This document shows, in pieces, positions 16,425 through 32,555 of a stretch of DNA of 64,000 bases. The DNA comes from Theionarchaea archaeon (lineage in GTDB: Archaea; Methanobacteriota_B; Thermococci; Methanofastidiosales; SZ-28-30): the NCBI GenBank assembly GCA_018992685.1, contig JACVGT010000014.1:29040-93039 (forward strand), in the 5' to 3' direction. The position numbers and the translations under genes were made by a program. Every line of letters starts with the position of its first letter. Position 1 is the stretch's first letter. Under the pieces are notes generated by a model, which ran no database searches, was not told the origin of the DNA, and saw nothing but the letters and a program-made list of their open reading frames with translations.

Positions 16425-16740
16425 ACAGGATTTTAAAACTTTTCCGGAAGAACCGCAGCCAGCCTATGATTCATCAAAGAATGACTAGTGGGGGTTCTGC
16501 CAACCATCACATTCTGGCAGTACAAAGGTATATAGTACTGATTACGAATCTTTACAGATTTACAATGCGTTGAGAAAGCTTGGAATACACAGCTTGATAA
16601 GAACAGGCTGCTGTGAAACCAACTAGCTAGCCCCACAACACTCGCGAAATCTGCGAAAAATCGATGAGTGACAGAAAACTTCTAAAGGTGGAACTCACAA
16701 ATGAGTTAGAGGTGAGAAAATGGACTGCATAAGGAAACTC

Positions 16741-16790
16741 GGTGGAGGACCAGGTGTCCCCACGAAATTGGGTGGAGGACCAGGTGTCCC
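16741..16790. repeat. Direct repeat: two copies of ggtggaggaccaggtgtccc with 30-bp periodicity
   Basis: Exact 20-mer at 16741-16760 and 16771-16790 separated by 10 nt, in a 510-bp non-coding spacer. Confidence 0.85.
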
Positions 16791-18376: not shown

Positions 18377-18880
18377 ATGAAAAAGAAGGAAATTATCAAC
18401 ATGGACGAACTGGATCCCCAATTCAAGTATGAGATCGCTTCCCAACCAGGAGGAGAGCACATACTGAAATGTGTGCAGTGTGCTACTTGTTCCTCTGGTT
18501 GTCCTGTGGCTTCTGTGAGTGACAGATTCAACCCACGGAAAATTATCCGAATGGCAGTCCTGGGACTGAAGGATACAGTCCTGAGAGAGGATTTTGTCTG
18601 GTACTGTGCTGCCTGTTACACATGCTCTGAACGCTGTCCCCAGGACGTGAGAATTCCTGACCTCATGGCGGCTGTCAGGAACATCGCAGTCAAAGAGGGA
18701 TGCATTCACCCTGCCTACAAAGAACAGGGGCGATTAATAGGGGAACTGGGACGATTGTATGAAGTGACTGAATTTGAGAATGAGAAAAGGGAGAAGCTTG
18801 GCCTTCCCAAAGTGAGAGAGAAGAATGAAGAAATAGCTGAAATTTACAGCTGCACTGGTGTAGGAAAGGTGGTGCTGTGA
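18377..18880 (+). CDS. hdrC: Heterodisulfide reductase subunit C
   Basis: Two Cx2Cx2Cx3CP ferredoxin motifs (CVQCATCSSGCP; CAACYTCSERCP) in a ~165-aa protein, directly followed by hdrB. Confidence 0.85.
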   Translation: MKKKEIINMDELDPQFKYEIASQPGGEHILKCVQCATCSSGCPVASVSDRFNPRKIIRMAVLGLKDTVLREDFVWYCAACYTCSERCPQDVRIPDLMAAVRNIAVKEGCIHPAYKEQGRLIGELGRLYEVTEFENEKREKLGLPKVREKNEEIAEIYSCTGVGKVVL

Positions 18881-19752
18881 AGTATGCATTGTTTTTAGGT
18901 TGTACTGTTCCAGTGAGAACCATGGCGTACGAAATTTCCACCAGAAATGTCATGAAAAAACTGGGGATCTCTCTTGCAGACTTGGAAGATTTCGGCTGCT
19001 GCGGATTTCCTTTAGAATCTATTGATCATACTACCTATTTGTCAGTGGCTGCGAGAAATCTGGCCGTTGCAGAAGCTGCCAACCTGCCTGTGATGACCAT
19101 GTGCAGTGCCTGCAATGGGTCTCTCCTCAAAGCCAACCTGGCCATGCAGGACAAGAATACACGAGATGAAATAAATGCCAACCTAAAGCCCATTAATCGG
19201 CAGTACAAGGGGACTACGGTTGTAAAGCATGCGGCCAGGGTACTATATGAGACCATGGACACCATAAAGGAGATGGCACATCCCCTGAACCTGAAGGTTG
19301 CTGCTCACTATGGATGCCATTACACTAAACCCTCCGAAATATATGCGGATTTCGAAGACCCCGAAGTCCCCTACAGTCTGGAGGAGCTCATCTCTGCAGT
19401 CGGAGCAACACCTATTCCGTACGAGAATAAAAAACAGTGCTGTGGAGGGTCTGTCATGGGAATTGATGAGAGTGTTTCTCTGGAGATGGTACGAGAGAAA
19501 CTATCTCACATCAAGAAAGCAGGAGCAGATGCCATGGTCCTGGTATGCCCGTTCTGTGATGTCATGTATGACATAAATCAGAAACGGATTGAAAATCAGG
19601 CTGGAGAACAATTCGGTATTCCTGTGCTGTTCCTGCCCCAGCTGATAGGACTGGCCCTTGGACTGACACCTGACGAATTAGGGCTGAAAATGAACAGAGT
19701 ATCAGTGCGCAATCTGCTGAAGACCCTGGGTGACGGCAATGAGCAAAAGTGA
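18877..19752 (+). CDS. hdrB: Heterodisulfide reductase subunit B (two CCG domains)
   Basis: Cysteine-rich CCG motifs (DFGCCGFPL; KKQCCGGSVMG) and overall HdrB length. 4-nt overlap with hdrC. Confidence 0.9.
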   Translation: MKYALFLGCTVPVRTMAYEISTRNVMKKLGISLADLEDFGCCGFPLESIDHTTYLSVAARNLAVAEAANLPVMTMCSACNGSLLKANLAMQDKNTRDEINANLKPINRQYKGTTVVKHAARVLYETMDTIKEMAHPLNLKVAAHYGCHYTKPSEIYADFEDPEVPYSLEELISAVGATPIPYENKKQCCGGSVMGIDESVSLEMVREKLSHIKKAGADAMVLVCPFCDVMYDINQKRIENQAGEQFGIPVLFLPQLIGLALGLTPDELGLKMNRVSVRNLLKTLGDGNEQK

Positions 19753-21721
19753 ACCTCGAATCGGAGTGTATGTGTGCCATTGCGGCTTGAACATTGGTGC
19801 AGTTGTGGATGTTGCTGCTGTGGCTCAATATGCCCAGACGCTTCCTGGCGTGGTGGTTTCAAGAGAATCAACCTACACATGCAGCGACAATGGTCAGAGA
19901 TCTATCCAGGAAGACATCGAGAACCACAACCTGAGTCGGGTGGTGGTGGCTTCCTGCAGTCCGCGCATGCATGGCGATACCTTCATGAAGACCTGTGAGA
20001 CTGCAGGGCTGAACCCGTACCTTTTTGAGATGGTCAATATCAGAGAGCAATGTTCATGGGTGCACACTGATAAAGAACAGGCCACAGAGAAGGCCAAAGA
20101 CTTGGTGAGAATGGCAGTTGCCAAAGTACGATTACTGGAACCCTTAGAAAAGCAGAAATCTGCCGTCAACAAGGCTGCACTGGTGATTGGAGGAGGAGTG
20201 GCCGGTATTTTCTCTGCTTTGTACCTGGCAAATGCAGGAATTAAAACATACGTTGTTGAGAAAAAGCCGTCTATTGGAGGACACATGGCTCAACTGGACA
20301 AGACATTCCCCACCCTGGACTGTAGTCTGTGCATTCTTTCTCCAAGAATGGCAGATATAGGAAAACATGAAAATATCGAACTCATTACCTATGCAGATAT
20401 TGAGAATATTTCAGGATACGCGGGGAATTTTCAGGTTACGGTGAAAAGCAACCCACGCTATGTCATAAAGGAGAACTGCCGACTGTGCGGTGTGTGTGCG
20501 GAAAAATGTCCTATCTCGCTGCCCGATGAGTTCAACATGGGATTGAAGAAAAGGAAAGCAGTGTACATACCTTTCCCGCAGGCAGTTCCGAATTACTACC
20601 TCATCGATGCTGGTCACTGTTTACACATTACCAAGGGAGGATGCATGCTGTGCCAGAAAAACTGTCCCAATGATGCCATTGATTTTGAAGAGACAGAAGC
20701 AGTGAGAGAGCTCAATGTGGGCGCCATCATTGTGGCCACGGGATTTGAGCTGTATGATGCTACCCAGAAGAAGGAGTACGGATACGGGAGGTATCCCAAT
20801 GTCATCACCAACATGGACTTCGAAAGGTGGGTGAGTGCAGATGGCCCTACCCACGGCAAGGTTGTGAGGCCTTCAGACGGAGCCCCCCCTCAGAGGATTG
20901 GGTTCATCCAGTGTGTCGGATCCCGAGACGAGAAGGAGGGAGCAGTCTACTGCTCTCGTATCTGCTGCATGGCAACGGTAAAGCAGGCCACGATGCTCAG
21001 GGAGAAGTACCCCTCAGCTGAAATATATGTGTACTACACTGACATGCGAACTCCTGGCAAAGGGTTTGAAGAATTTTACCAGAGAGGACGTGAGCATGGG
21101 ATTGTATTCATCAGAGGAAAGCCAGGGGAAATTGAAGAAGATGACAATCACAATCTCCTTATCGTGTCAGAGGACACCGATTCCGGGCTCATCCTGCGCA
21201 ACACCTTGGACCTTGTGGTGTTGGCATGTGGACTTCGGCCACCTGAGGCGTTGGAAGAACTTGCACAGAAGTTGCATTTATCGCGAAGCCCTGACGGATT
21301 CATTATGGAGGCGCATCCCAAATTGCGTCCTGCAGAAACAAGTATCTCTGGAGTATTCCTGACTGGATGTGTTCAATTCCCCAAAGATATTCCAGATACG
21401 GTGGCACAATCAGGAGGAGCCGCCGCTATGGCCGCGGCCCTGTTGACGAAAGATGAGATCGAACTTGAGCCAGTAAGGGCAGCGGTGGACGAAGAACTGT
21501 GTATCGGGTGTGGATTGTGCGAGGAAAACTGCGACTATGGGGCCATTGAGGTAAAGAAAACAGAAGAAGGAATGAAGGCCCAGGTCATTGAAGTAGCCTG
21601 CCAGGGATGCGGTGTCTGTGCAGCCAGCTGTCCTCAGAAAGCAGTGACAGTCCGTCACTTCACAGATGGTCAGCTGCTGGCCCAGGTCACTGCTGCTCTA
21701 GAACCTGAGGTGATCGTGTGA
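19739..21721 (+). CDS. hdrA: Heterodisulfide reductase subunit A (canonical domain order)
   Basis: N-terminal Cys cluster domain (IGVYVCHCGLNIG ... ASCSPRMHG), FAD motif LVIGGGVAGIFSAL, inserted ferredoxin (CRLCGVCAEKCP / CMLCQKNCP), GPKDIPDTVAQ region, C-terminal 2x[4Fe-4S] ferredoxin (CIGCGLCEENC / CQGCGVCAASCP). Confidence 0.9.
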   Translation: MSKSEPRIGVYVCHCGLNIGAVVDVAAVAQYAQTLPGVVVSRESTYTCSDNGQRSIQEDIENHNLSRVVVASCSPRMHGDTFMKTCETAGLNPYLFEMVNIREQCSWVHTDKEQATEKAKDLVRMAVAKVRLLEPLEKQKSAVNKAALVIGGGVAGIFSALYLANAGIKTYVVEKKPSIGGHMAQLDKTFPTLDCSLCILSPRMADIGKHENIELITYADIENISGYAGNFQVTVKSNPRYVIKENCRLCGVCAEKCPISLPDEFNMGLKKRKAVYIPFPQAVPNYYLIDAGHCLHITKGGCMLCQKNCPNDAIDFEETEAVRELNVGAIIVATGFELYDATQKKEYGYGRYPNVITNMDFERWVSADGPTHGKVVRPSDGAPPQRIGFIQCVGSRDEKEGAVYCSRICCMATVKQATMLREKYPSAEIYVYYTDMRTPGKGFEEFYQRGREHGIVFIRGKPGEIEEDDNHNLLIVSEDTDSGLILRNTLDLVVLACGLRPPEALEELAQKLHLSRSPDGFIMEAHPKLRPAETSISGVFLTGCVQFPKDIPDTVAQSGGAAAMAAALLTKDEIELEPVRAAVDEELCIGCGLCEENCDYGAIEVKKTEEGMKAQVIEVACQGCGVCAASCPQKAVTVRHFTDGQLLAQVTAALEPEVIV

Positions 21722-22458
21722 CATTTTCTCCTAGGATTGTAGGGTTCATGTGTAACTGGTGTTCGTATGCAGGAGCTGATCTGGCTGGAATTTCGAGGAT
21801 AAAATATGCTCCCAATCTGAGGATTATCAGAGTGCTGTGTTCCGGGCGAGTTGACCCTTACGTAGTTCTGACCGCATTCCAAAAGGGTGCAGACGGCGTT
21901 CTGGTTGCAGGGTGCCACCCTGGAGACTGCCACTACATATCAGGGAACTACCAGGCAGAAAAGAAAATGAAAGCGACATGGAAGATATTGAGCAAAGCAG
22001 GGATTGATCAAGAAAGACTGGGACTGGAATGGATTTCTGCAGCAGAAGGTCAGCGATTTGCTGACGTTGTCAACTCGTTTACTCAACTGATTACTGAGTT
22101 GGGACCGCTTCAGGCTGATCCGCAGAAGATTGCCTCGGCCAAGGAAGAGACTGCAGATTTCAGAATTAGGTGGCTGGTGGGAAGAGAAAAAGACTTGCTG
22201 GAAGAGGGAAATGTGTTTGGCGAACCTGTAGAAGAAGCAGTGTTTGAGACCCTTCTGGATGATGTTGTTTCTGCCCAATACATCAGGAATTCTATTCTCA
22301 CCGTGCTCAAGGAACAGTCTATGTCAGCCAAAGAACTGGCAGAAACTCTTGAAATTCCTTCTCACGTGGTTGTGGAGCATTTGATTCACCTGCGGAGAGG
22401 GCAGAAGGTGCACATGGTTGAAGGTCATCCCATTCGGTACGAGGTGAGCGCATGGTAG
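21718..22458 (+). CDS. mvhD: MvhD-like [2Fe-2S] electron-transfer protein fused to a C-terminal winged-helix-like domain
   Basis: Residues 1-135 are MvhD (VGFMCNWCSYAGADLAG ... VAGCHPGDCHYISGN). An extra ~110 aa tail contains an HTH-like stretch SMSAKELAETLEIPSHVVVEHLIHLRRGQKV. GTG start overlaps the hdrA stop (GTGA). Confidence 0.8.
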   Translation: MTFSPRIVGFMCNWCSYAGADLAGISRIKYAPNLRIIRVLCSGRVDPYVVLTAFQKGADGVLVAGCHPGDCHYISGNYQAEKKMKATWKILSKAGIDQERLGLEWISAAEGQRFADVVNSFTQLITELGPLQADPQKIASAKEETADFRIRWLVGREKDLLEEGNVFGEPVEEAVFETLLDDVVSAQYIRNSILTVLKEQSMSAKELAETLEIPSHVVVEHLIHLRRGQKVHMVEGHPIRYEVSAW

Positions 22459-25421
22459 GTTCCATAATGGTTGTAGGAGGAGGAATTGCAGGAATGCAGG
22501 CCTCCCTGGATCTGGCAGATTCTGGATTTCGAGTATACCTGGTGGATAAAGCACCCACTATTGGTGGAGTGATGGCTCAGCTGGACAAAACCTTCCCCAC
22601 ACTGGACTGCTCCATGTGTATCATGGCTCCCAAGCTCGTGGCCACCGGGAGGCACCACAATATCCATCTGCTTACCAATGCAGTGATCACCAATGTGGAG
22701 GGAACCCCAGGCAACTTCACCGTAACGGTGACAATGAAGCCCCGTTACGTAAACGCGGAGAAATGCACAGGATGCGGACTGTGTGCCCAGTACTGCCCTG
22801 TAGAAGCAGTAAATGAATATGATGAACGACTGACGTTGCGCAGAGGTATCTACGTGGACTATCCTCAGGCAGTCCCGTTGGTATATGCGATAGACAGAGA
22901 GAAGTGCATTGGATGCGGATTGTGTGAGAATATTTGCCAGGCTGAAGCCATTGAATATCATCAGACTCCTGAAGAAGAACAGGTGAATGTAGGTGCCATT
23001 ATTCTGGCGGCAGGATTTGACGAATTTGAACCTGATACCAAGAAGGAATATGGGTACGGCAGGTTCAAGAATGTGGTGACTGCCACTGAATTCGAGCGCA
23101 TCCTCAGTGCTTCAGGTCCCTTTGCAGGACACGTGGTGAGGCCTTCTGATGGTGAAGTCCCGGGGAGAATAGCATTCTTGCAGTGCGTGGGGTCCAGAGA
23201 TGAAAACAGCAACAAGTATTGCTCTGCCGTGTGCTGCATGTATGCCACAAAGGAAGCTATTATTGCCAAAGAACACAACCCCGACCTTGAGGCAACAATC
23301 TTTTTCATGGACATGCGTACCTACGGGAAAGGGTTTGAACAGTTCTACAAGAGAGCCCAGTCTGAATACGGTCTCAGATACACGAGAAGCCGCGTCCCCT
23401 GTATTGAAGCAGACCCCGAAACTCAAAACCTCCTTCTTACCTATGAAACAGAAGATGGTACCATAACTAAAGAAGAATTTGACATGGTGGTCCTCTCAGT
23501 GGGGTTGGAGCCGCCAAAATCCAATCAAGAGCTGAGCAGCATTTTCGGTGTTCCTCTGAATGAATATGGGTTCCTAGACTGGAAAATATTTGAACCCCTC
23601 AAGGCAAAGGACGGCATATATGCATGCGGAGCCTTCTCTGGACCAAAAGACATTCCTGATACTGTGGCGCAGGCATCAGGAGCAGCAGCTATGGCATCAG
23701 GCGTAGTCTCCGGAGAACGGGGCACTCTCGTGGAAGAAAAGGTCTATCCTGAGGAGCTGGACGTTGCGGAACAGCCGCCCCGAATTGGTGTTTTCGTGTG
23801 CTGGTGCGGTATCAATATAGGTGGCATTGTCAATGTGCCCGAGGTGATGGAGTATGCCTCCACCCTCCCCAATGTGGTGTTCGTCGACCAGAATCTGTAT
23901 ACATGTTCACAGGATACGCAGGAGAAGATCAAACAGGCAGTGGAAGAGCACAGCCTGAACCGTGTGGTTGTTGCGTCCTGTACACCGCGAACACACGAAC
24001 CGCTGTTCCAGAGCACTATTCGGGAAGCTGGGCTGAACCCGTATCTCTTTGAGATGACAAACATTAGAGACCAATGTTCCTGGGTTCACATGCACACTCC
24101 AGAAGAAGCTACAGAAAAGGCAAAGGACCTGGTGAGAATGGCGGTAGCCAAATCCAATCTACTGGAGCCATTGAAGAGTTCGTCAGTTGAGGTCACTCAG
24201 TCTGGACTGGTCATTGGAGGCGGTATTGCGGGAATGACAGCAGCTCTGGGCCTGGCTCAACAGGGATTCACTGTCCACCTGGTAGAAAAGGAGGATCATC
24301 TGGGAGGGCTGCTGCGTGACATACGCTACACGGTGAGCGGGGAAGACCCCCAGGAGTATTTGACAGGTCTGGAACAGAGTCTCAGAGATCATCCCAATGT
24401 CACCATCCACACACAAGCAGTTGTGGAGAAAGTTGAGGGATATGTGGGGAACTTCACCACCACACTGTCCTCAGGAGAGGAAATCAACCATGGAATCTGC
24501 GTTATAGCTGTAGGAGGGCAAGAGCACAAGCCCACCAGTTATCTGTATGGCGAGGACAAGAGAGTCATCACCCAGCTGGAATTTGAGGATATGCTCTCCA
24601 AAGGAGTGAAGGCCAAGACTGTGGTGATGATAAATTGTGTGGAATCCAGAGATGACACCAAGGAATACTGCTCCAGGGTATGCTGTTCAGAAGCTGTGAA
24701 AAATGCTTTACAGCTGAGAGAACAGAATCCAGACGCAACCATATATATTCTGTACAGGGACATGAGAACCTACGCGTTCAGAGAGCAGTACTATGACAAG
24801 GCACGGGAAGCAGGTGTCGTATTCATGAGGTATGATCCAGAGACAAAACCTCGACTGGAAAAGAAAGACAAATCGTTGGTGTTATACGCGCACGATTCTG
24901 CTCTGGATCTTGACTTTGAACTGCATCCCGACCTGGTTGTACTGTCTACAGGAGTATCTCCCTATGACAACTCAGCGCTCTCTCAGATGCTCAAAGTCCC
25001 TCTTGACAGAGACGGGTTCTTCTTGGAAGCCCACATGAAACTGCGCCCGGTGGATTTTGCCACAGACGGGGTATTCATGGCAGGGCTGGCACATTCTCCC
25101 AAGTTCATTGATGAGACGATTTCTCAGGCTTTTGGAACAGTTGCCCGGGCTTGTACCATCGTCTCAAAAGAGAGAATAGAGACAGAGCCAATCATTGCAG
25201 AAGTTGATGAAGAACTCTGCTGCGGGTGCCAGGTATGTATACCAATGTGCCCGTATAATGCACGTGAATTAGATGAGGAGGAGAAGATAGTCAAGGTCAA
25301 CGAAGTGCTCTGCAAAGGGTGCGGTTCGTGTGTTGCTGCATGTCCCTCCAAGGCAGCTCAGCAGAGACACTTCCGTGACAGCCAATTAAGTTCCATGATT
25401 GAGGCCTTTGTGAGGCGATAA
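22452..25421 (+). CDS. Large (989 aa) HdrA-like flavoprotein with permuted and duplicated domains: FAD domain with inserted ferredoxin, HdrA N-domain-like Cys cluster, second FAD domain, C-terminal ferredoxin
   Basis: Two Rossmann FAD motifs (MVVGGGIAGMQASL at residue ~6; LVIGGGIAGMTAAL at ~580). HdrA N-domain-like segment in the middle (IGVFVCWCGINIGG ... ASCTPRTHE ... NIRDQCSWVH). Ferredoxin CxxCxxCxxxC motifs after FAD domain 1 and at the C-terminus. Confidence 0.8.
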   Translation: MVGSIMVVGGGIAGMQASLDLADSGFRVYLVDKAPTIGGVMAQLDKTFPTLDCSMCIMAPKLVATGRHHNIHLLTNAVITNVEGTPGNFTVTVTMKPRYVNAEKCTGCGLCAQYCPVEAVNEYDERLTLRRGIYVDYPQAVPLVYAIDREKCIGCGLCENICQAEAIEYHQTPEEEQVNVGAIILAAGFDEFEPDTKKEYGYGRFKNVVTATEFERILSASGPFAGHVVRPSDGEVPGRIAFLQCVGSRDENSNKYCSAVCCMYATKEAIIAKEHNPDLEATIFFMDMRTYGKGFEQFYKRAQSEYGLRYTRSRVPCIEADPETQNLLLTYETEDGTITKEEFDMVVLSVGLEPPKSNQELSSIFGVPLNEYGFLDWKIFEPLKAKDGIYACGAFSGPKDIPDTVAQASGAAAMASGVVSGERGTLVEEKVYPEELDVAEQPPRIGVFVCWCGINIGGIVNVPEVMEYASTLPNVVFVDQNLYTCSQDTQEKIKQAVEEHSLNRVVVASCTPRTHEPLFQSTIREAGLNPYLFEMTNIRDQCSWVHMHTPEEATEKAKDLVRMAVAKSNLLEPLKSSSVEVTQSGLVIGGGIAGMTAALGLAQQGFTVHLVEKEDHLGGLLRDIRYTVSGEDPQEYLTGLEQSLRDHPNVTIHTQAVVEKVEGYVGNFTTTLSSGEEINHGICVIAVGGQEHKPTSYLYGEDKRVITQLEFEDMLSKGVKAKTVVMINCVESRDDTKEYCSRVCCSEAVKNALQLREQNPDATIYILYRDMRTYAFREQYYDKAREAGVVFMRYDPETKPRLEKKDKSLVLYAHDSALDLDFELHPDLVVLSTGVSPYDNSALSQMLKVPLDRDGFFLEAHMKLRPVDFATDGVFMAGLAHSPKFIDETISQAFGTVARACTIVSKERIETEPIIAEVDEELCCGCQVCIPMCPYNARELDEEEKIVKVNEVLCKGCGSCVAACPSKAAQQRHFRDSQLSSMIEAFVRR

Positions 25422-25423
25422 CC

Positions 25424-25834
25424 ATGTATGAACCAAAAATTATCGGATTCTTGTGTAACTGGTGTTCATATGCAGCTGCAGATCTGGCGGGGACTTCCAG
25501 GATACAGTATCCATCCAACATGAGAGCGATCCGGGTTATGTGTTCCAGCAGGGTGGACCCTGAACATGTGCTGCGGGCATTTGTCAACGGCGCAGACGGC
25601 GTTCTGATTGCAGGATGTCACCCCGGTGACTGCCACTACATCTCAGGTAACTACAAAACAGAAAGGAAATATGTGCTGCTGCGCGAGATGTTGGAGCAGT
25701 TCGGCATTGACCCACGCAGGCTGAGGCTGGAGTGGTGTTCTTCTGCTGAAGGTGGAAAGTTCGCGCAGGTAGTGACGGAGATGACTGAAGAACTGAAAAC
25801 TCTTGGACCAATAGAACTGGGAGCTGGTGATTGA
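25424..25834 (+). CDS. mvhD: MvhD, [2Fe-2S] subunit of F420-non-reducing hydrogenase (stand-alone copy)
   Basis: 136 aa: IIGFLCNWCSYAAADLAG ... IAGCHPGDCHYISGNY. Confidence 0.9.
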   Translation: MYEPKIIGFLCNWCSYAAADLAGTSRIQYPSNMRAIRVMCSSRVDPEHVLRAFVNGADGVLIAGCHPGDCHYISGNYKTERKYVLLREMLEQFGIDPRRLRLEWCSSAEGGKFAQVVTEMTEELKTLGPIELGAGD

Positions 25835-26809
25835 ATGGATAAGCTAAAGTTTGCTTTCTATTGGGCCGCCTCTTGCGGCGGCTGTGAAATCGCTGTTCTG
25901 GATATTGATGAGAAGATACTGAATGTCGTTGAAAAAGCAGACATTGTCTTCTGGCCAGTGGCACTTGACACCAAGTACAAAGATGTAGAGGCATTCCAAG
26001 ACAAGTACATTGATGTGTGTTTCTTCAATGGTGCTATTAGAACCAGCGAACATGAGGAAATGGCCCATCTGCTCCGTGCGAAATCCAAGACATTGGTTGC
26101 ATTTGGAGCCTGTGCCTGTTTTGGAGGAATACCAGGGCTGGCCAATGTTTCTGACAGAGACGAGATCTTTGATCTGGTATACAGAGAGTTACCGTCCGTA
26201 TCCAACCCGGACAAGACGACACCTCAGCTCACCTACACAGCTCCCGAGGGGGAGTTGACTCTCCCACAATTCTTCGATACAGTCAAGGCTCTACACCAGG
26301 TCTGTGACGTAGATTACTTTTTGCCTGGGTGTCCTCCCACCCCGGAGATGATCGAACAGGCGGTTACTGCGATTTTTGAGGGAACTCTACCTTCAAAAGG
26401 AAGTACCTTAGCACCTGAAAAAGCGTTGTGTGAAGAGTGCCCCTTGGAAATCCAAGAGAAAAAAATCCCTTTTATCAAGCGCCCCTACCAGGTCACACCT
26501 GATGGAAAAAGGTGCCTGTTGGAACAGGGTGTCATTTGTATGGGCATCAATACCAGAGCAGGGTGTGGAGCCAGGTGCATCAAAGCCAACATGCCGTGCA
26601 GAGGATGCATGGGTCCGACTCCTGAGGTGGCTGATCAGGGAGCAAAACTGGTATCTGCCATTGCTTCCATTCTGGGTGTGGAAGGAGAAGAACGCATGAC
26701 GGAAAAGGAAATTGAAGCCCTGATAGCCCAGATAAAGGATCCACTCGGAACATTCTACCGGTACACCTTACCAATTTCTCTGTTAAGAAGAAAGGTGATA
26801 AAAAAATGA
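25835..26809 (+). CDS. mvhG: [NiFe]-hydrogenase small subunit MvhG
   Basis: N-terminal proximal-cluster motif YWAASCGGCEIAVLD, GACACFGG, and the CPPTP region typical of group 3c small subunits. Confidence 0.85.
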   Translation: MDKLKFAFYWAASCGGCEIAVLDIDEKILNVVEKADIVFWPVALDTKYKDVEAFQDKYIDVCFFNGAIRTSEHEEMAHLLRAKSKTLVAFGACACFGGIPGLANVSDRDEIFDLVYRELPSVSNPDKTTPQLTYTAPEGELTLPQFFDTVKALHQVCDVDYFLPGCPPTPEMIEQAVTAIFEGTLPSKGSTLAPEKALCEECPLEIQEKKIPFIKRPYQVTPDGKRCLLEQGVICMGINTRAGCGARCIKANMPCRGCMGPTPEVADQGAKLVSAIASILGVEGEERMTEKEIEALIAQIKDPLGTFYRYTLPISLLRRKVIKK

Positions 26810-28260
26810 ATCGAGTTACCATTAATCCTATCACTCGCCTGGAAGGGCATGGTAAAATTGAGATATTCCTTGATAGCAAGGGAAATGTGGAGAATGCCTA
26901 TCTGCAGATTCCTGAATTGCGCGGATTTGAACGGTTCTGCCAAGGAAGGCCTGGGGAGGAACTGCCCAGAATTACTCCTCGAATCTGTGGTGTGTGTCCC
27001 ACTGCTCATCACATGGCATCTGCAAAAGCACTGGATGCAGCCTTTAATGTGGAGCCGACACCCACTGCTAAGAAATTGAGAGAACTCATGTATGCAGGAT
27101 ACTATGTATATGATCACACTCTTCACTTCTACTATCTGGGTGGTCCTGACTTCATTGTGGGGCCTCAAGCCCCGGCTGCAGAACGAAATATTCTTGGCGT
27201 TATCAACAAGGTGGGACTTGACATTGCAAAAGAAGTGATCAAGCACAGAAGCTACGGACAAAAAGTCATTGAAATCCTGGGAGGAAAAGCCACTCATCCT
27301 GTTTCAGCACTCCCGGGAGGGATATCTAAAGGGCTGACAGAAGAGGAAAGGGCCAGCATTGAAGAAATGGCCAGGTCTTCTGTCAAGTTTGCAGCGTTTT
27401 CTCTAGAAACCTTTGACAACATTGTCCTCAAGAACAAGGAATATGTTGATTTGATTACTTCAGATGCCTATACCATGAGAACATATTACATGGGGCTTGT
27501 TGACGAGAACAACAAGGTCAACTTCTACGATGGAAAGATAAGAGTTGTGGATCCCACTGGGAAGGAGTACATCAAGTTTGATGCTTCAGACTACCTCACA
27601 CACATTGCAGAACATGTGGAACCCTGGTCGTACATCAAATTCCCTTACCTGAAAGGGGTAGGATGGAAAGGGTTTGTAGATGGCGTAGACTCTGGAGTGT
27701 ACCGGGTTGCCCCATTGGCAAGACTCAATGCTGCACAGGGAATGGCCACACCATTGGCCCAGGAAGCATATGAGAAGATGATGGAAACGCTGGGTTCCCC
27801 TGTCCACCATACGCTTGCCACACACTGGGCCCGCCTCATTGAGCTTCAATATGCAGCAGAACGCCTGCTGGAGTTGGCCCAGGATGAAGACATCACTTCC
27901 AAAGACATACGAGCTGAGCCGGGAGAACCCGGTGAAGGAGTGGGGGTTGTCGAAGCAGCTCGTGGAACCTTATTCCATCATTACAAGCTGGACAAAGACG
28001 GGCTCGCCGAAAGTGTCAACCTCATAGTTGCCACCGTAAACAATGGACCCGCCATAAACATGTCAGTAAGAGATGCAGCAAAAGGACTCATAAAAGAGGG
28101 TAAGGTATCTGATGGGTTGCTGAACATGGTAGAAATGGCCTTCAGGTCATATGACCCCTGCTTTGGCTGTGCTACCCATTTCCTCCCTGGAGAAATGCCA
28201 CTACAGGTGAGAATTCACAGAATCGACGGAACAGTTCAAACTCTTGAACGGAATCTCTAA
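26806..28260 (+). CDS. mvhA: [NiFe]-hydrogenase large subunit MvhA
   Basis: N-terminal RICGVCPTAHH (RxCGxCxxxH) and C-terminal DPCFGCATH (DPCxxCxxH) nickel-ligand motifs. About 26 residues follow the C-terminal His. Confidence 0.9.
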   Translation: MNRVTINPITRLEGHGKIEIFLDSKGNVENAYLQIPELRGFERFCQGRPGEELPRITPRICGVCPTAHHMASAKALDAAFNVEPTPTAKKLRELMYAGYYVYDHTLHFYYLGGPDFIVGPQAPAAERNILGVINKVGLDIAKEVIKHRSYGQKVIEILGGKATHPVSALPGGISKGLTEEERASIEEMARSSVKFAAFSLETFDNIVLKNKEYVDLITSDAYTMRTYYMGLVDENNKVNFYDGKIRVVDPTGKEYIKFDASDYLTHIAEHVEPWSYIKFPYLKGVGWKGFVDGVDSGVYRVAPLARLNAAQGMATPLAQEAYEKMMETLGSPVHHTLATHWARLIELQYAAERLLELAQDEDITSKDIRAEPGEPGEGVGVVEAARGTLFHHYKLDKDGLAESVNLIVATVNNGPAINMSVRDAAKGLIKEGKVSDGLLNMVEMAFRSYDPCFGCATHFLPGEMPLQVRIHRIDGTVQTLERNL

Positions 28261-28374: not shown

Positions 28375-28776
28375 ATGGTACAAAAACACTGGACAGCGAT
28401 GTTTCGATGGCATGAATTCAGACCAGATGAGAAGGGAATTGAGAAGGTGTTGAGCCCTCTGGAATCTGAGATCATGCAGATTATGTGGGATGAGAAGATA
28501 TCTGTGGCTCGGGATATCTATGAGATCATGAAAAAAAAGGAAAAGAAGACCCGCAGATCTACAATCAGCATCATGATGAACCGGCTGCGCGAACGGGGGC
28601 TTCTGGAGAGACAGCCGGAGACAGGAAAAGGGGGAGAACGATATGTCTACACCGTCAGAGTAACACGGGAAGAGTTTTCCCGTGCAGTGGTGGAAAAGGT
28701 AATGAGCAGTCTCACAGAAGCGTTCCAGGATGCCACGGTGAGGTATGTGAGAAACCATCTTTCTGATAAGATTTAA
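28375..28776 (+). CDS. BlaI/MecI/CopY-family winged-helix transcriptional repressor
   Basis: LSPLESEIMQIMWDE ... STISIMMNRLRERGLLERQ ... YVYTV matches the Penicillinase_R wHTH pattern. No BlaR1-type sensor or copper ATPase adjacent. Confidence 0.6.
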   Translation: MVQKHWTAMFRWHEFRPDEKGIEKVLSPLESEIMQIMWDEKISVARDIYEIMKKKEKKTRRSTISIMMNRLRERGLLERQPETGKGGERYVYTVRVTREEFSRAVVEKVMSSLTEAFQDATVRYVRNHLSDKI

Positions 28777-28904
28777 GGCACAAACTCAAGGAGAAAAAAA
28801 GGGTGGGTCTGCAGGAATCTCAGGTTTAGTCGACATGGGGTTTGGATCCACAATCGAAATGCGGTTAACTGCTAGCAAAAGTGCTTTAGAATGAGGAGAC
28901 TCTA

Positions 28905-29714
28905 ATGAATTGTGTTGTGATAAGATATGGAGAGATAGGCACCAAGTCGAGGCGGACTCGCAGGCGATGGGAAAGCATATTCATGAAGAATATTAGGAGC
29001 GCATTGGAAGCAAACAATGTTGAATTCAGCTCCATTGAAAACCCCAGAGGCAGAATCATCGTTGCCACCAGAGATCCGAGGGCAGTCGACGTGATAAAGG
29101 ATGTCTTTGGAATTTCGTCAATTTCGTTTGCCACACGAGGGAGTCTTGATCTGAAAGACATGAAAGAAAAAGCGTGGGAGTTCTACAGGAGGTTCGGAAA
29201 AGGAGGTACCTTCCGCATTTCTACACAGAGGCTGGACAAGCAGTTTCCCCTAACATCCCAGGAGGTTAGTGCAGAAGTGGGAGCCTTTATTGCCTGCAGG
29301 CATGTCTCTGTTGACCTCACAAATGCTGATGTTGACATTGGCATCGAGATCCTGAGTGATGCTGCCTACTTTTTTGTGGATCGTATTTCAGCTTACGGAG
29401 GAATTCCGGTGGGAATACAGGGGAAAGTGTTAATTCATCTCACAGACAGGAGATCTGCAGTGGCTGCATGGATGATGTTGAAGCGGGGATGTGGGCTGGT
29501 GGTACACGGAGATGAGGAGATCGGTTTCCGCCTTGGACGATTTTCATACGGGTGTCCTATCACCAAGCTTCTGGACTCACAGAAAGCAAAGAGTGTTCTT
29601 GCTGTGGTCTTTTCTGAGTTCCATCCAGAGAAAAGAGACATTCCAAGTTTCTATCCACTTCTAGGACTGAAAGAAAGCCAGATACAAGAAATTTCGGAAG
29701 ACATTTTTAGATAG
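28905..29714 (+). CDS. ThiI-like THUMP-domain protein lacking a functional PP-loop
   Basis: N-terminus VIRYGEIGTKSRRTRRRWE and THUMP region resemble ThiI. The segment aligned to the PP-loop (GKVLIHLTDRRSAVAAWMMLKRGCGLVVHG) has TDRRS instead of SGGxDS. The protein stops at 269 aa. Confidence 0.5.
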   Translation: MNCVVIRYGEIGTKSRRTRRRWESIFMKNIRSALEANNVEFSSIENPRGRIIVATRDPRAVDVIKDVFGISSISFATRGSLDLKDMKEKAWEFYRRFGKGGTFRISTQRLDKQFPLTSQEVSAEVGAFIACRHVSVDLTNADVDIGIEILSDAAYFFVDRISAYGGIPVGIQGKVLIHLTDRRSAVAAWMMLKRGCGLVVHGDEEIGFRLGRFSYGCPITKLLDSQKAKSVLAVVFSEFHPEKRDIPSFYPLLGLKESQIQEISEDIFR

Positions 29715-29794
29715 AAGAATCGACACATGAACAGCTCATGTGGGATTTCACTGAAAAACAAATAAAAAGTAGAAAAGGAAAATTGAGAGTTAAA

Positions 29795-30625
29795 CTACGG
29801 TTTCTTGCCTTTTCCTTTGCTCTTACCCTTGTTCTTGTCTTTTCCCTTTCCTTTGCCGTTGTTGTTGCTGTCGCTTTCACTGTCCTCATCGTCTTTGTTG
29901 TTGCCATTTCCCTGATTCCCAAGAGAATTCTTCTCTCTGTTCTGTTCTCTGTTCTGTTCCTGGTTTTCATCCTCGCCTTCGTTCTGTTCTTCGTTCTGTT
30001 CTTCGTTTTCCTCTCCGTCCTCTCCGTTGTCTCTCTCGTACTTGCTCAGAGCATTCCCGGAGGTGTGGAGTGCAGCATTTGAAAGACCCTTTGCAGCACC
30101 AAGTTTTCCCTCTGCTGCCTTTTCAGCTGCCTTCTGCAGCAATTTAACAGCTACATTGTATAGGGTCTCCACGGCCTGAGAAACTTCTCCCTCGCCTTCT
30201 TCGTCTTCTTCATCGTCGCCTATTTCATCGTCTCCGTCATCTTCGCCTTCTCCGTCATCTTCGCCTTCTCCGTCATCTTCGCCTTCTCCGTCATCTTCGC
30301 CTTCTCCGTCATCTTCGCCTTCTCCGTCATCTTCGCCTTCTCCGTCATCTTCGCCTTCTCCGTCATCGCCGTTAAGCAGCTCTTCAAGTTCTTTTATGTT
30401 ATTGGCAGCATCAATGAACTGCTGTACCAGCGCTTCTGACATACCTTCGTTGTCGGCATCGTCAGGGAAGGGATCAAATTGATCAGGAATTCCATCGCCG
30501 TCAGAGTCAGCCCACGGATCAGTCTCTTCATCTTCTTCCGGAGGATCCTCTGAGTCTTCTGCAAGGATTGGATAGAGGTTTCCGATAAGCATCATGAGCA
30601 TCAAGATCGCAATCAGCTTTTTCAT
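29795..30625 (-). CDS. Secreted low-complexity poly-acidic protein with (GEGEDD)n repeats, thrombospondin-type-3-like Asp motif and a Lys/Gly-rich C-terminal tail
   Basis: Signal peptide MKKLIAILMLMMLIGNLYPILA. DSDGDGIPDQFDPFPDD (DxDxDG-like) motif. Seven-plus tandem GEGEDD units, then E/N/Q-rich segment and KGKGKDKNKGKSKGKGKKP end. Confidence 0.5.
   Translation of the reverse strand: MKKLIAILMLMMLIGNLYPILAEDSEDPPEEDEETDPWADSDGDGIPDQFDPFPDDADNEGMSEALVQQFIDAANNIKELEELLNGDDGEGEDDGEGEDDGEGEDDGEGEDDGEGEDDGEGEDDGEGEDDGDDEIGDDEEDEEGEGEVSQAVETLYNVAVKLLQKAAEKAAEGKLGAAKGLSNAALHTSGNALSKYERDNGEDGEENEEQNEEQNEGEDENQEQNREQNREKNSLGNQGNGNNKDDEDSESDSNNNGKGKGKDKNKGKSKGKGKKP
30231..30374. repeat. Perfect 18-bp tandem repeat (tctccgtcatcttcgcct) x7 plus one diverged unit, encoding the GEGEDD repeats
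   Basis: Seven identical consecutive 18-mers read directly from the sequence. Confidence 0.95.
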
Positions 30626-30830
30626 GTAGTTCACCTAATCCTCTTAGGCACGATCCTTTATAAGCTTTTCGCCGAGTAGTCAGAATATTTTCAATCTTTT
30701 TAAGAAATTTCTTAAGTCTTTTGCGAAATATACAATACATGACAGTACTGTGTGTTATTGCGAAGGGAAACCCCCTGGAAAGATGCAGTCCTGCGCAATG
30801 TTTATAACTGACAATGGACTTTTGTTTTCC

Positions 30831-31322
30831 ATGAGATATGCAGCGATATTTCTGATCTTGTTGACTGCAGCGTGCATAGGTCAAGAATCTGAACAGCCCC
30901 AGGTGATGGCCACTCCTGAGGAAATCATAACCTCGTACGTTGAGGGTCTGAATCAGAGAAATTTGGCTGAAATAGAGGACCTGACCCACCCCTACTTCGT
31001 CAATGATGCAGAACAGCTCCTGGACTTCGTCACAAATGAGAAGCTGAGATTCGAGATAGCAGGAATATCTCTTGTGATGGAAGAAGAAGAGTTCAGGGAA
31101 ATGACAAAGGGACTCTCTGACGCCGAATTTGCCGAACAAATTGGAAAGAGAGGAAGGTCCTATGAGGTCATAGTCACCGTCACCACTTCAGACACTTCTT
31201 ATGAGGAGATTCTCCTGTTTATTGAATTGGGAGAAACTGAGGAAGGATGGAAAGTCATTGAACCCAATGTGCTCCAGTTGCTGATTGAAACCTCATTGGA
31301 AGTCGCACAGGCAGAAGGTTAA
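30831..31322 (+). CDS. Hypothetical lipoprotein
   Basis: Signal peptide with lipobox-like LLTAAC|IG after start MRYAAIFLILL. Acidic soluble domain with no recognised family. The longer frame from 30750 is rejected. Confidence 0.4.
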   Translation: MRYAAIFLILLTAACIGQESEQPQVMATPEEIITSYVEGLNQRNLAEIEDLTHPYFVNDAEQLLDFVTNEKLRFEIAGISLVMEEEEFREMTKGLSDAEFAEQIGKRGRSYEVIVTVTTSDTSYEEILLFIELGETEEGWKVIEPNVLQLLIETSLEVAQAEG

Positions 31323-31622
31323 GAAAGCAGCCCGATAACCGTGTGTGTCTTCCTGAACCAGTATGTTCAGTAGCTACTGATTTCTGGATTTATCACTACC
31401 TACACATGAATAATGATCACATGCTGGGACAGAACGTTTGACTGAACGGTTTACACTGTGATATTTGAAGCCGCATTGCGTGAAGAAACTCATCAGTTTA
31501 CGAACAGTGATCCTGTCACACAGAGAGGATCAATGACTGGTGAGGTCCACTCTTTCAACATATCCTTGAGTAGGTCCTCGTGCAGGGATTAACTTATTTA
31601 TGTCGTGTTTCCATGGAAGTAT

Positions 31623-32555
31623 ATGCTCATAATCAATGAACAATCTGTTCTTGACTGCATTACAGCATGTTCTGAAGTAAAGAATATCGCGGTACAGGCT
31701 CCAGCAGGACTGAGGAAGAAAGCCTTGGAACTCAGCACCTTTCTGGAAAATGCAGGGTACACAGTTTTTATTTCAGCTGCCCCCTGTTATGGTGCCTGTG
31801 ATCTGGAGGAATTTGGAGATCTTCTGGTTCATGTTGGACACACTGAAATCTACTCTGCCAAGATACCCGTAGTCTACGCGGAGGTTATTGATGATTTTGA
31901 CTTTATTCCCACGTTAGAAGAGAACTTGAATAAGATACCGGCGCGAGTTGGGCTCCTCACTACTGCCCAGCACAAGCTCGAACTGGAGAGAGTTCAGAGG
32001 TATCTGAACACCAACCGAATTGAAACTCACACAGGTCTCGGATCAAGAACTGAATTCGAAGGTCAGATACTGGGCTGTGATCTCATGGCAGCAGTCAGCG
32101 TTTTGGAGGCAGTGGACGCTTTTCTCTACTTGGGAACAGGCGACTTTCATCCTCTGGGTGCAGCCATTGCCACGGGAAAGCCTGTATTCCGAGTATACGA
32201 TACGTTTGAGATTGTAGATTTCGAGAAATTGTTGAGAAAGAGACATGCTCTCATCTTTGAAGCTTCCCGGAGATCAACCTTTGGCATCGTCATTAGCACA
32301 AGAAAAGGCCAGAACAGAATGAGTGAGGCCTTGGCCATTAAGTCCTACTTGAGAGAAAGAGGGAAGAACACTTTCCTTTTCGTGTGCAACGAAATCAGAC
32401 CAGAGGTTCTGTATGGGTGCGATGCATATGTTATCTGCGCCTGTCCCAGGATTGCTTTGGATGATGCTGCGCTGTATGATGCTCCTGTCCTGACCTGCAC
32501 GGAAGTTCCCTTGATGTTTGAGGAAAGGGAGTATACTATGGATATGATCATATGA
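31623..32555 (+). CDS. dph2: Diphthamide biosynthesis enzyme Dph2 (2-(3-amino-3-carboxypropyl)histidine synthase)
   Basis: Strong match to archaeal Dph2 throughout (LLTTAQH ... ILGCD ... LYLGTGDFHPLG ... FGIVISTRKGQNR ... ICACPRIALDD). TATA-like acttatttatg sits 26 bp upstream of ATG 31623. Confidence 0.85.
   Translation: MLIINEQSVLDCITACSEVKNIAVQAPAGLRKKALELSTFLENAGYTVFISAAPCYGACDLEEFGDLLVHVGHTEIYSAKIPVVYAEVIDDFDFIPTLEENLNKIPARVGLLTTAQHKLELERVQRYLNTNRIETHTGLGSRTEFEGQILGCDLMAAVSVLEAVDAFLYLGTGDFHPLGAAIATGKPVFRVYDTFEIVDFEKLLRKRHALIFEASRRSTFGIVISTRKGQNRMSEALAIKSYLRERGKNTFLFVCNEIRPEVLYGCDAYVICACPRIALDDAALYDAPVLTCTEVPLMFEEREYTMDMII

Follow-up and report, generated by a model that had tools for sequence, protein, structure and literature searches.

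The question raised by this locus is whether a minus-strand open reading frame (ORF) that carries a perfect 18-bp tandem array belongs to a real gene and, if it does, what its strongly acidic product might do for the cell. The ORF lies at 29795-30625 of the window, by which we mean the whole 64,000-nucleotide stretch of Theionarchaea archaeon DNA under analysis (contig JACVGT010000014.1, assembly GCA_018992685.1), and its product is referred to as the acidic protein. The evidence obtained shows the ORF to be a genuine gene, a member of a small orphan family confined to the Theionarchaea lineage, whose 18-bp array is an in-frame variable number tandem repeat (VNTR) affecting only the length of an acidic loop. 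A role of the probably exported protein in binding divalent cations near the cell is proposed tentatively. The features on which the argument draws are the following; pLDDT stands for the predicted local distance difference test of AlphaFold2.

30656-30671, minus strand: archaeal TATA element with B recognition element (BRE), CGAAAAGCTTATAAAG, a putative promoter by consensus
30631-30636, minus strand: Shine-Dalgarno sequence AGGTGA, 5 nt upstream of the ATG
29795-30625, minus strand: coding sequence of the 276-aa acidic repeat pre-protein, with ATG start and stop codon at 29795-29797
30560-30625, minus strand: predicted Sec signal peptide MKKLIAILMLMMLIGNLYPILA, probably cleaved after Ala22 as read from the sequence
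30509-30559, minus strand: N-terminal acidic, proline-containing stretch EDSEDPPEEDEETDPWA, 17 residues, delimited by alignment of homologues
30458-30508, minus strand: single Cys-less motif resembling a thrombospondin type 3 (TSP3) repeat or EF loop, DSDGDGIPDQFDPFPDD, residues 40-56 (the Asp loop)
30371-30436, minus strand: amphipathic helix 1, EALVQQFIDAANNIKELEELLN, residues 64-85, block pLDDT 78-85, hydrophobic positions invariant
30185-30370, minus strand: acidic Gly/Asp/Glu loop, residues 86-147, leading from helix 1 to helix 2, pLDDT <50
30231-30367, minus strand: perfect 18-bp tandem array of 7.6 copies, with coding-strand unit GGAGAAGGCGAAGATGAC encoding GEGEDD
30029-30178, minus strand: helical hairpin, residues 150-199, with invariant GLSNAA..TS.NAL; helices 150-171 and 175-199, pLDDT 81-90
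29867-30028, minus strand: acidic segment rich in Glu, Asn and Gln (E/N/Q-rich), made of short perfect 9- and 12-bp tandem repeats, pLDDT <50
29798-29866, minus strand: Lys/Gly-rich basic tail NNNGKGKGKDKNKGKSKGKGKKP (the KG tail), recognised by composition and sequence
29740-29790, minus strand: oligo-T tracts right after the stop codon, a likely terminator
29738-30082, plus strand: opposite-strand hydrophobic ORF of 114 aa, not a gene

The reading frame and its family

The acidic minus-strand ORF is understood as a real gene from the combination of a third-position excess among substitutions, an architecture shared by the orthologues and conserved expression signals. Substitutions were counted in pairwise codon alignments of the window gene with its orthologue at locus L004 or L001 (loci are cited by L numbers), read in the minus-strand frame. 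The differences from L004 at codon positions 1/2/3 amount to 4/1/28 in the N-terminal part, to 4/2/16 in the helical hairpin (17 synonymous against 4 non-synonymous changes) and to 6/10/34 in the part lying under the antisense ORF (27 synonymous against 14 non-synonymous in the sense frame); comparison of the hairpin with that of L001 gives 5/0/24. The hairpin is thus under strong purifying selection. As regards the start of the gene, the program-made ORF list had placed it at GTG 30634, inside the Shine-Dalgarno sequence, and the true start is ATG 30625. The orthologues all place ATG or GTG at the corresponding M/V-K-K position, 5-7 nt past GGTGA, and the original prediction, which had the gene begin at this MKK position, therefore gave the right coordinates (29795-30625). 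The GGTGA sequence recurs at conserved spacing in 13/13 loci compared, as does an aAAa(n)TTTATAWA element some 35-40 nt upstream of the start (13/13), and runs of T follow the stop codon in all ten loci compared. Given that the acidic gene converges on a gene for a THUMP protein and diverges from a lipoprotein-like gene, it appears to form a stand-alone transcription unit.

It had been conceded with the original prediction that the hydrophobic ORF on the opposite strand might turn out to be the expressed product, and this alternative is now effectively refuted. Its attraction lies in an open frame of 114 codons with transmembrane-like composition and in the presence of comparable antisense ORFs in L004, L009 and L011. 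In the antisense frame, however, synonymous changes fall far below non-synonymous ones (2/39 against L004, 3/42 against L001 and 4/36 against L003), and the changes concentrate on codon position 1 of that frame, which is the wobble position of the sense gene. The antisense ORFs of other loci vary in length and number, and the one in the window, which lacks a conserved promoter or ribosome-binding site, begins within the putative terminator of the sense gene. Its open frame mirrors a coding sequence rich in GAA, GAC, AAC and AAG codons, and the substitution patterns settle the matter for the acidic protein.

A word-index search of 5.8 billion proteins returned five homologues over the full length (247-266 aa), each a hypothetical protein encoded in a metagenome or a metagenome-assembled genome (MAG), together with three low-complexity false matches (P0006-P0008). 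One orthologous locus, recorded as "MAG: Theionarchaea archaeon", came from a scan of genomes and ten more from a scan of metagenomes; at least 14 orthologous loci share the architecture. Profile searches with the hairpin and the N-terminal block added P0009, a spurious AAKGLS repeat, and P0012, a partial NCBI orthologue. With a profile hidden Markov model of the hairpin, a search of 1.84 billion cluster representatives found only the family itself, P0010 and P0011 being repetitive false matches. An exact-sequence look-up of the window protein gave no record, and neither the whole protein nor its isolated segments matched a family in Pfam or NCBIfam, the hit to the serine-rich NF033849 (E = 0.042, 11 bits) being compositional. 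The host lineage is ranked by the NCBI taxonomy as a class within Methanobacteriota that lacks cultured members, and comprises anaerobic sediment archaea that are reported as abundant in deeper anoxic layers (PMC12806544).

Length variation of the tandem array

Tandem Repeats Finder reports the array at 30231-30367 with a period of 18, 7.6 copies, 100% matches, no indels and a score of 274, which makes it by far the top-scoring repeat of the window. The seven full and identical 18-mers at 30231-30356 that had been described as encoding (GEGEDD)7 are confirmed, and the array extends 11 bp beyond them. The orthologous arrays compare as follows.

L004/L018 and L017, Theionarchaea MAGs: the same 18-bp unit, present as 17 nt, a 100-N gap and 117 nt, the gap being inside the array
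L004 6273-6372, L017 3273-3372 and L018 3273-3372: the scaffold gap of 100 N in the orthologous array (GCA_018992565.1, GCA_018992805.1)
L001 and L003: a 27-bp unit (GDDEGDDGV) in 3.6 against 5.6 copies; 91% identical, with a 51-bp indel
L002: a 27-bp unit (EDEEDDGEG) in 3.7 copies
L010, L012 and L014: repeats of 9-bp type, (EDD/DDE/EDE)n
L011 and L015: 98.4% identical, with in-frame indels of 9 and 42 bp in the repeat only

The assignment as a VNTR reflects near-identical units that are in frame, a copy number that differs between close relatives, and conserved flanks; the acidic loop accordingly spans 26-64 aa among complete family members. Length polymorphism of the repeat, which the original prediction had expected from slippage, is demonstrated by the close pairs L001/L003 and L011/L015, with slippage or unequal recombination as its origin. 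The companion claim that perfect identity of the units implies recent expansion has to be given up. A genome ~84% DNA-identical to the window carries this 18-bp unit too, perfectly repeated at least 7.5 times, and the repeat flanks of the window and the SZ MAGs have diverged by ~31% at third codon positions. Since the same perfect unit is found in so diverged a relative, the array is understood to be an old one whose copies turnover has kept alike. That the window and L004 have an identical unit was also considered as a sign of selection at the DNA level or of transfer, a notion rejected on the ground that six unchanged synonymous sites would arise by chance with a probability of ~10%.

An assembly artefact had been named at the outset as a possible source of error. 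The feature itself proves real, and the part of the caveat that survives concerns copy number, which may be under-assembled in view of the 100-N gaps in three MAG records. That the 7.6 copies of the window represent a collapsed version of a longer or heterogeneous array is a somewhat unlikely proposition, yet one that deserves attention. All three NCBI Theionarchaea MAG records concerned are broken by a 100-N gap in this same array, contigs L010 and L014 end within acidic repeats, and L015 ends soon after its own repeat. A parallel exists in Treponema pallidum, where short-read assemblies fail to resolve the comparable arp repeat and the resulting genomes routinely omit it (bioRxiv 10.1101/2022.08.02.502389 / PMC9531955). 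Collapse is opposed by the array of the window being contiguous and in frame, with unique sequence on either side, and by its length of 137 bp, short enough for 150-nt reads or a k-mer of 141; it would in any case bear only on copy number, not on the existence or nature of the gene. In the NCBI annotation the gapped orthologue appears as two hypothetical proteins marked partial, one of 90 and the other of 168 aa. The gap thus splits the gene in public MAG records, with the effect that the family is under-represented in protein databases.

Architecture of the predicted protein

From its N-terminus, the protein consists of a signal-peptide-like segment, an acidic stretch, the Asp loop, helix 1, the acidic repeat loop, the helical hairpin, the E/N/Q-rich segment and a KGKGK tail. 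Written out in order, the 276-aa product is composed of MKKLIAILMLMMLIGNLYPILA, EDSEDPPEEDEETDPWA, DSDGDGIPDQFDPFPDD, ...EALVQQFIDAANNIKELEELLN, GDD(GEGEDD)7GDDEIGDDEEDEEGEGE, VSQAVETLYNVAVKLLQKAAEKAAEGKLGAAKGLSNAALHTSGNALSKYERD, NGEDGEENEEQNEEQNEGEDENQEQNREQNREKNSLGNQGNGNNKDDEDSESDS and NNNGKGKGKDKNKGKSKGKGKKP; the repeat is set in the context NGDD-(GEGEDD)x7-GDDEIGDDEEDEEGEGE, with the E/N/Q-rich segment and the tail following. The full protein contains 42 D, 51 E, 21 K and 3 R residues and no Cys, with an isoelectric point of 4.05 and a net charge of -69 (-71 without residues 1-22). Three charged low-complexity blocks, namely the acidic loop, the E/N/Q-rich segment and the Lys-Gly tail, are found in every complete orthologue, in differing sequences and lengths. 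The basic tail is variable in length, with K/G/N/D/E/S variants, and shows a 6-bp indel between L001 and L003; the N-terminal acidic stretch also varies in length across the family, up to ~40 aa of poly-E in L011. The E/N/Q-rich segment includes perfect repeats of 12 bp x 2.2 (29934-29959), 12 bp x 2.6 (29977-30007) and 9 bp x 2.1 (30009-30027), and the KG tail an imperfect repeat of 30 bp x 2.2 (29802-29868). The C-terminal third of the gene (29802-30027, minus strand) can be seen throughout as a mosaic of short tandem repeats.

The N-terminus divides into MKK / LIAILMLMMLIG / NLYPILA|ED, with KK in the n-region, an h-region of 12-13 residues and YP as helix breaker. Small residues occupy positions -3 and -1 among the orthologues (ILA, VFA, VLA, TFA, TLA) and acidic residues come next; the n/h/c layout is retained by all of them despite drift of the sequence. 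Basic n-region, h-region and small -3/-1 residues together correspond, as read from the sequence, to a substrate of Sec-type signal peptidase I. From this layout we infer that the acidic protein is exported by Sec and cleaved after Ala22 to leave a mature protein of ~254 aa. Two other modes of anchoring were looked for in the protein. A lipobox Cys, as in archaeal lipoproteins, is absent from this Cys-free sequence, and the C-terminus ...GKGKGKDKNKGKSKGKGKKP lacks the hydrophobic segment of an archaeosortase/PGF-CTERM substrate.

The Asp loop had been described in the original prediction as TSP3- or EF-like and as the start of the mature protein. The likeness to TSP3 is borne out. Although a bare DxDxDG occurs in 15% of composition-matched shuffles, the extended pattern D.D.DG..D..D..P does so in only 0.011% of 100,000 shuffles, and the sole sequence match in the PDB is the OmpA-family structure 5wtl_A, reached both by phmmer with the segment (E = 2.7e-4) and by hmmsearch with a ten-sequence profile (E = 1.1e-4). 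The loop aligns to each of the five TSP3 repeats of 5wtl_A, DTDGDGIPDKDDACP. Bacterial TSP3 repeats of the 5wtl type are described as calcium-binding in PMC12045341, which cites Dai et al. 2017; the title of the latter, as given there, has Ca2+ binding depend on an intra-repeat disulfide, and the structure figures as the only solved bacterial example. The position at the mature start does not stand, in that the 17 acidic residues of EDSEDPPEEDEETDPWA separate the likely ILA(22)|ED cleavage site from the motif. Conservation of the loop is high. In the six-sequence alignment, which comprises the window protein and five homologues, the consensus D[SA]DGD[GE]IP[DN]x[FY]DPFPDD is described as invariant in all but one residue (S/A at the second position), and an invariant Trp stands two residues ahead of it. 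Across ten aligned sequences, 12 of the 17 positions are invariant, and further metagenome loci carry the same motif.

Although the loop resembles, on sequence grounds, a Ca2+ site of TSP3/EF type, the acidic protein is not a member of the TSP3 family. The pattern D-x-D-x-D-G-x-x-D-x-x-D-x-x-P is matched once, at residues 40-54, and the contiguous series of repeats typical of TSP3 is missing, with no second match in the protein or anywhere in the six-frame translation of the 64-kb window. Pfam TSP_3 (PF02412) gives no hit for the full protein at E <= 0.1, nor for the isolated motif or the N-terminal segment at E <= 10. Two controls delimit what the Pfam model recognises. The OmpA-like protein of L006, with Cys-containing DRDGDGIPDQYDKCP, is found at E = 3.8e-8, and a protein of L005 with the Cys-less, single-copy DTDGDGVPDMFDPFPDDP is missed:

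L005 4987-9411 (SLQV01000198.1, Myxococcales MAG): 1474-aa PA14/PPC-domain protein with DTDGDGVPDMFDPFPDDP

From the Cys-less single motif in L005, which Pfam TSP_3 also fails to recognise, it would seem that the TSP3 loop has a stand-alone variant of wide occurrence, overlooked by current models. A canonical EF-hand is not present either: D1, D3, D5, G6, D9 and D12 are in place and the flanking helices are absent, since in the AlphaFold2 model nothing helical precedes residue 40 and the loop is followed by no more than a turn of three residues. As for the Excalibur domain (DxDxDGxxCE), the corresponding DSDGDGIPDQ has no Cys and Pfam returns no hit.

AlphaFold2, run on the six-sequence alignment, yields a model of mean pLDDT 59 and predicted template modelling score (pTM) 0.41, in which helices 64-85, 150-171 and 175-199 have block pLDDT values of 78-90 and the remainder falls below 50. 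By the positions of the helices in this model, the acidic repeat is a loop inserted between helix 1 and the hairpin. The three helices are the most conserved parts of the protein, and the hairpin alone counts 22 invariant columns, the polar residues of GLSNAA..TS.NAL included. The early description of the protein as probably disordered consequently applies to the acidic and E/N/Q-rich regions (pLDDT <50) and fails for the three conserved amphipathic helices, which are predicted to be an ordered core. Their packing into a small core that docks to a partner or to itself is a plausible reading of the model. Foldseek comparison of the model with the PDB retrieved nothing at E <0.7, only generic helical hairpins such as cytochrome b562, and a PDB profile search with the hairpin found only de novo designed helical proteins at E >= 0.06.

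Proposed function, chromosomal setting and known counterparts

The reading we favour starts from export by Sec, where cleavage after Ala22 would release a protein of ~254 aa with a net charge near -71, and this polyanion would then stay near the cell. Its Asp loop may hold one Ca2+ ion, and the long carboxylate-rich loops could bind or buffer divalent cations (Ca2+, Mg2+, Fe2+) with high capacity and low affinity at the surface of this inhabitant of anoxic sediment. The polybasic KG tail might tether the protein by charge to an anionic surface, whether that of the envelope, of a mineral or of acidic blocks in adjacent molecules, and the helical core would act as a specific module for docking or oligomerisation. 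Slippage of the repeat would alter the size of the polyanionic loop and leave the core untouched. As a joint claim of cation binding by Asp and carboxylate loops, tethering by the tail and a docking core, this account is tentative and stands a little below even. Several observations weigh against it. Low-complexity polyacidic stretches can be favoured simply for their charge or solubility, with no specific role in ion binding; the Asp loop occurs only once and is without the Cys that canonical TSP3 repeats possess; searches of Pfam, NCBIfam and solved structures gave no match from which a function could be assigned; packing of the helices rests on pLDDT and secondary structure, at a pTM of 0.41; and the neighbourhood is uninformative on function, consisting of housekeeping genes, with other contexts in L009 and L011.

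Chief among the alternatives, and less probable than cation binding without being far-fetched, is that the protein is exported and that ion binding is not its function. In that case the three-helix core would dock to a partner, for instance a protein of the S-layer or the envelope, and the acidic loops and basic tail would be charged spacers, forming an entropic brush or anti-fouling layer that repels mineral particles, humics or viruses, or that keeps the protein soluble, with repeat length being nearly neutral. It agrees with such a role that the hairpin is the most constrained part of the protein (the 22 invariant columns, and 17 synonymous against 4 non-synonymous changes relative to L004) and that the acidic loop keeps its composition while sequence, unit and length (26-64 aa) change. 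The TSP3-like loop nonetheless equals the hairpin in invariance, a sign of a site for a specific ligand; moreover, no docking partner can be put forward and the adjacent lipoprotein-like gene is not a constant neighbour. The fate of the N-terminus is a separate issue. The hydrophobic stretch LIAILMLMMLIGNLYPIL has 18 residues and could be an uncleaved signal anchor, making the product a type-II membrane protein that displays its polyanionic chain at the cell surface. We regard this as improbable, the unbroken hydrophobic core being only ~12-13 residues long and the N-L-Y-P sequence with the conserved small -3/-1 pair, followed by an acidic stretch, representing the classic layout for signal peptidase I that all orthologues keep.

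Slightly more remote still is the more far-reaching idea of an extracellular block polyampholyte specific to Theionarchaea, which assembles head to tail or coats cell or mineral surfaces, with loop length under diversifying selection. Loop length could in that event tune the nucleation of metal sulfide or carbonate in sulfidic sediment, or vary a surface structure targeted by viruses. Very little credence is given to a precursor whose C-terminal KG tail would be a cationic peptide, neutralised by the long anionic pro-region ahead of it and set free by proteolysis. The order of signal peptide, anionic block and cationic C-terminus does resemble that of cationic antimicrobial peptide precursors as we know them. 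Yet the tail, made purely of K/G/N/D/S, is neither hydrophobic nor amphipathic, a conserved processing site ahead of it is missing, the 93 D and E residues far outnumber the 22 K and R, and the best-conserved parts of the protein are the helices rather than the tail. Returning to the exported cation binder, the acidic protein is a candidate, open to testing, for the buffering of cations, the control of mineral nucleation or the shielding of surface charge in Theionarchaea, and may be among the most highly charged exported proteins of these archaea. In practical terms, the gene breaks short-read assemblies, and its repeat could act as a strain-resolving length marker for Theionarchaea populations. 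If true, the block polyampholyte would add a component not described before to the envelope of a class of archaea without cultured members.

The gene region is ordinary chromosomal DNA. The 12 kb around the gene are ~80-84% DNA-identical to JACVGW010000005.1 of Theionarchaea archaeon SZ_28-30, and the order shared with that contig and with JGI contigs runs from an HdrA-like/FlpD/MvhG/MvhA [NiFe]-hydrogenase cluster through a BlaI-type regulator and a THUMP/ThiI-ferredoxin protein to the acidic gene on the opposite strand, then to the lipoprotein-like gene, YCII, Dph2, a methyltransferase, Csl4 and RpoL. A mobile-element or RNA-gene reading was considered and found unsupported in view of the lack of a phage match and of an Rfam family: tblastn of phage records gave no match, and Rfam at 28800-31700 gave only a sub-threshold plant microRNA hit attributable to chance. 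No tRNA was found in the window. The lipoprotein-like neighbour (30831-31322, plus strand, ~163 aa) has a lipobox-like N-terminus MRYAAIFLILLTAAC with LLTAAC, belongs to no Pfam or NCBIfam family and has a possible BRE/TATA element GCGAAATATAC at ~30722-30732. It adjoins the acidic gene in L001-L004, L007, L010 and L012-L014 (42-78% identity) and does not in L009 and L011. A functional pairing of the two genes was rejected as unproven, considering that the whole neighbourhood is syntenic and that L009 and L011 are without the neighbour.

Elsewhere in the vicinity, the YCII-family gene is intact (102 aa) in L001, L003, L004 and L017, and the window retains only a C-terminal remnant at 31420-31592 (plus strand), flanked by the lipoprotein-like gene and Dph2. 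The remnant is 45% identical and has an in-frame stop, the spacer between the flanking genes measuring 283 bp against ~510 bp, and it looks like a decayed pseudogene or a deletion. Upstream, at 18877-28260 (plus strand), lies a cluster of Hdr/Mvh type with FlpD/MvhD-like proteins and a small subunit, its layout deduced from synteny with L001. Two HdrA-like polyferredoxin/flavin adenine dinucleotide proteins of ~990 aa are encoded in L001, where the window shows one ORF of 989 aa. The large subunit of the [NiFe]-hydrogenase (26806-28260, PF00374) is followed by a regulator of the BlaI/Penicillinase_R family (28375-28776). The second-best tandem repeat outside the acidic gene is a 30-bp unit x 1.9 at 16734-16790 with 92% identity (GAAACTCGGTGGAGGACCAGGTGTCCCCAC).

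Regarding known systems, the acidic family itself is undescribed, and secreted acidic tandem-repeat proteins are already known as a kind; the protein is otherwise an ordinary low-complexity one specific to its lineage and not a new system, and the evidence points to no unexpected mechanism. With TSP3 proteins (5wtl, PF02412), the acidic protein shares a D-x-D-G-D-G-I-P-D-x-x-D-x-x-P core that aligns residue for residue, and the extracytoplasmic location, which is predicted in its case. It differs in having one loop as opposed to a contiguous series of repeats and in carrying, as do all relatives, Phe (DPFPDD) where the canonical repeat has Cys before Pro. It also lacks an OmpA or beta-barrel domain, and its archaeal host has no outer membrane. 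Closest in gene structure is Arp of Treponema pallidum (TP0433), which the source cited above portrays as an acidic protein with central, near-identical, in-frame tandem repeats of strain-variable copy number. There is no sequence homology between the two, and the repeat unit is 60 bp in arp compared to 18 bp here and to 27 or 9 bp in relatives. Arp is from a bacterial pathogen, in which the repeat count is used for strain typing, and the acidic protein from a free-living archaeon. The acidic protein is distinguished from Arp, moreover, by its TSP3-like loop, its conserved helical core and its polybasic tail.

In composition, the analogy extends to calsequestrin, to MamJ of magnetotactic bacteria and to the Asp-rich proteins of the shell matrix, all of them acidic proteins that bind cations with high capacity and low affinity or are associated with biominerals. 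The features in common are a very high content of Asp and Glu (34% of residues in the acidic protein), low complexity, predicted disorder of the acidic regions, and a location that is extracytoplasmic or in the lumen of a compartment, the former being predicted for the acidic protein. The analogy is one of composition only, with no homology and no link of the acidic gene to a mineralising organelle or gene cluster. The block arrangement that combines a Lys-Gly tail with a three-helix core is found in the acidic protein and is not a feature of the calsequestrin, MamJ or shell-matrix families.

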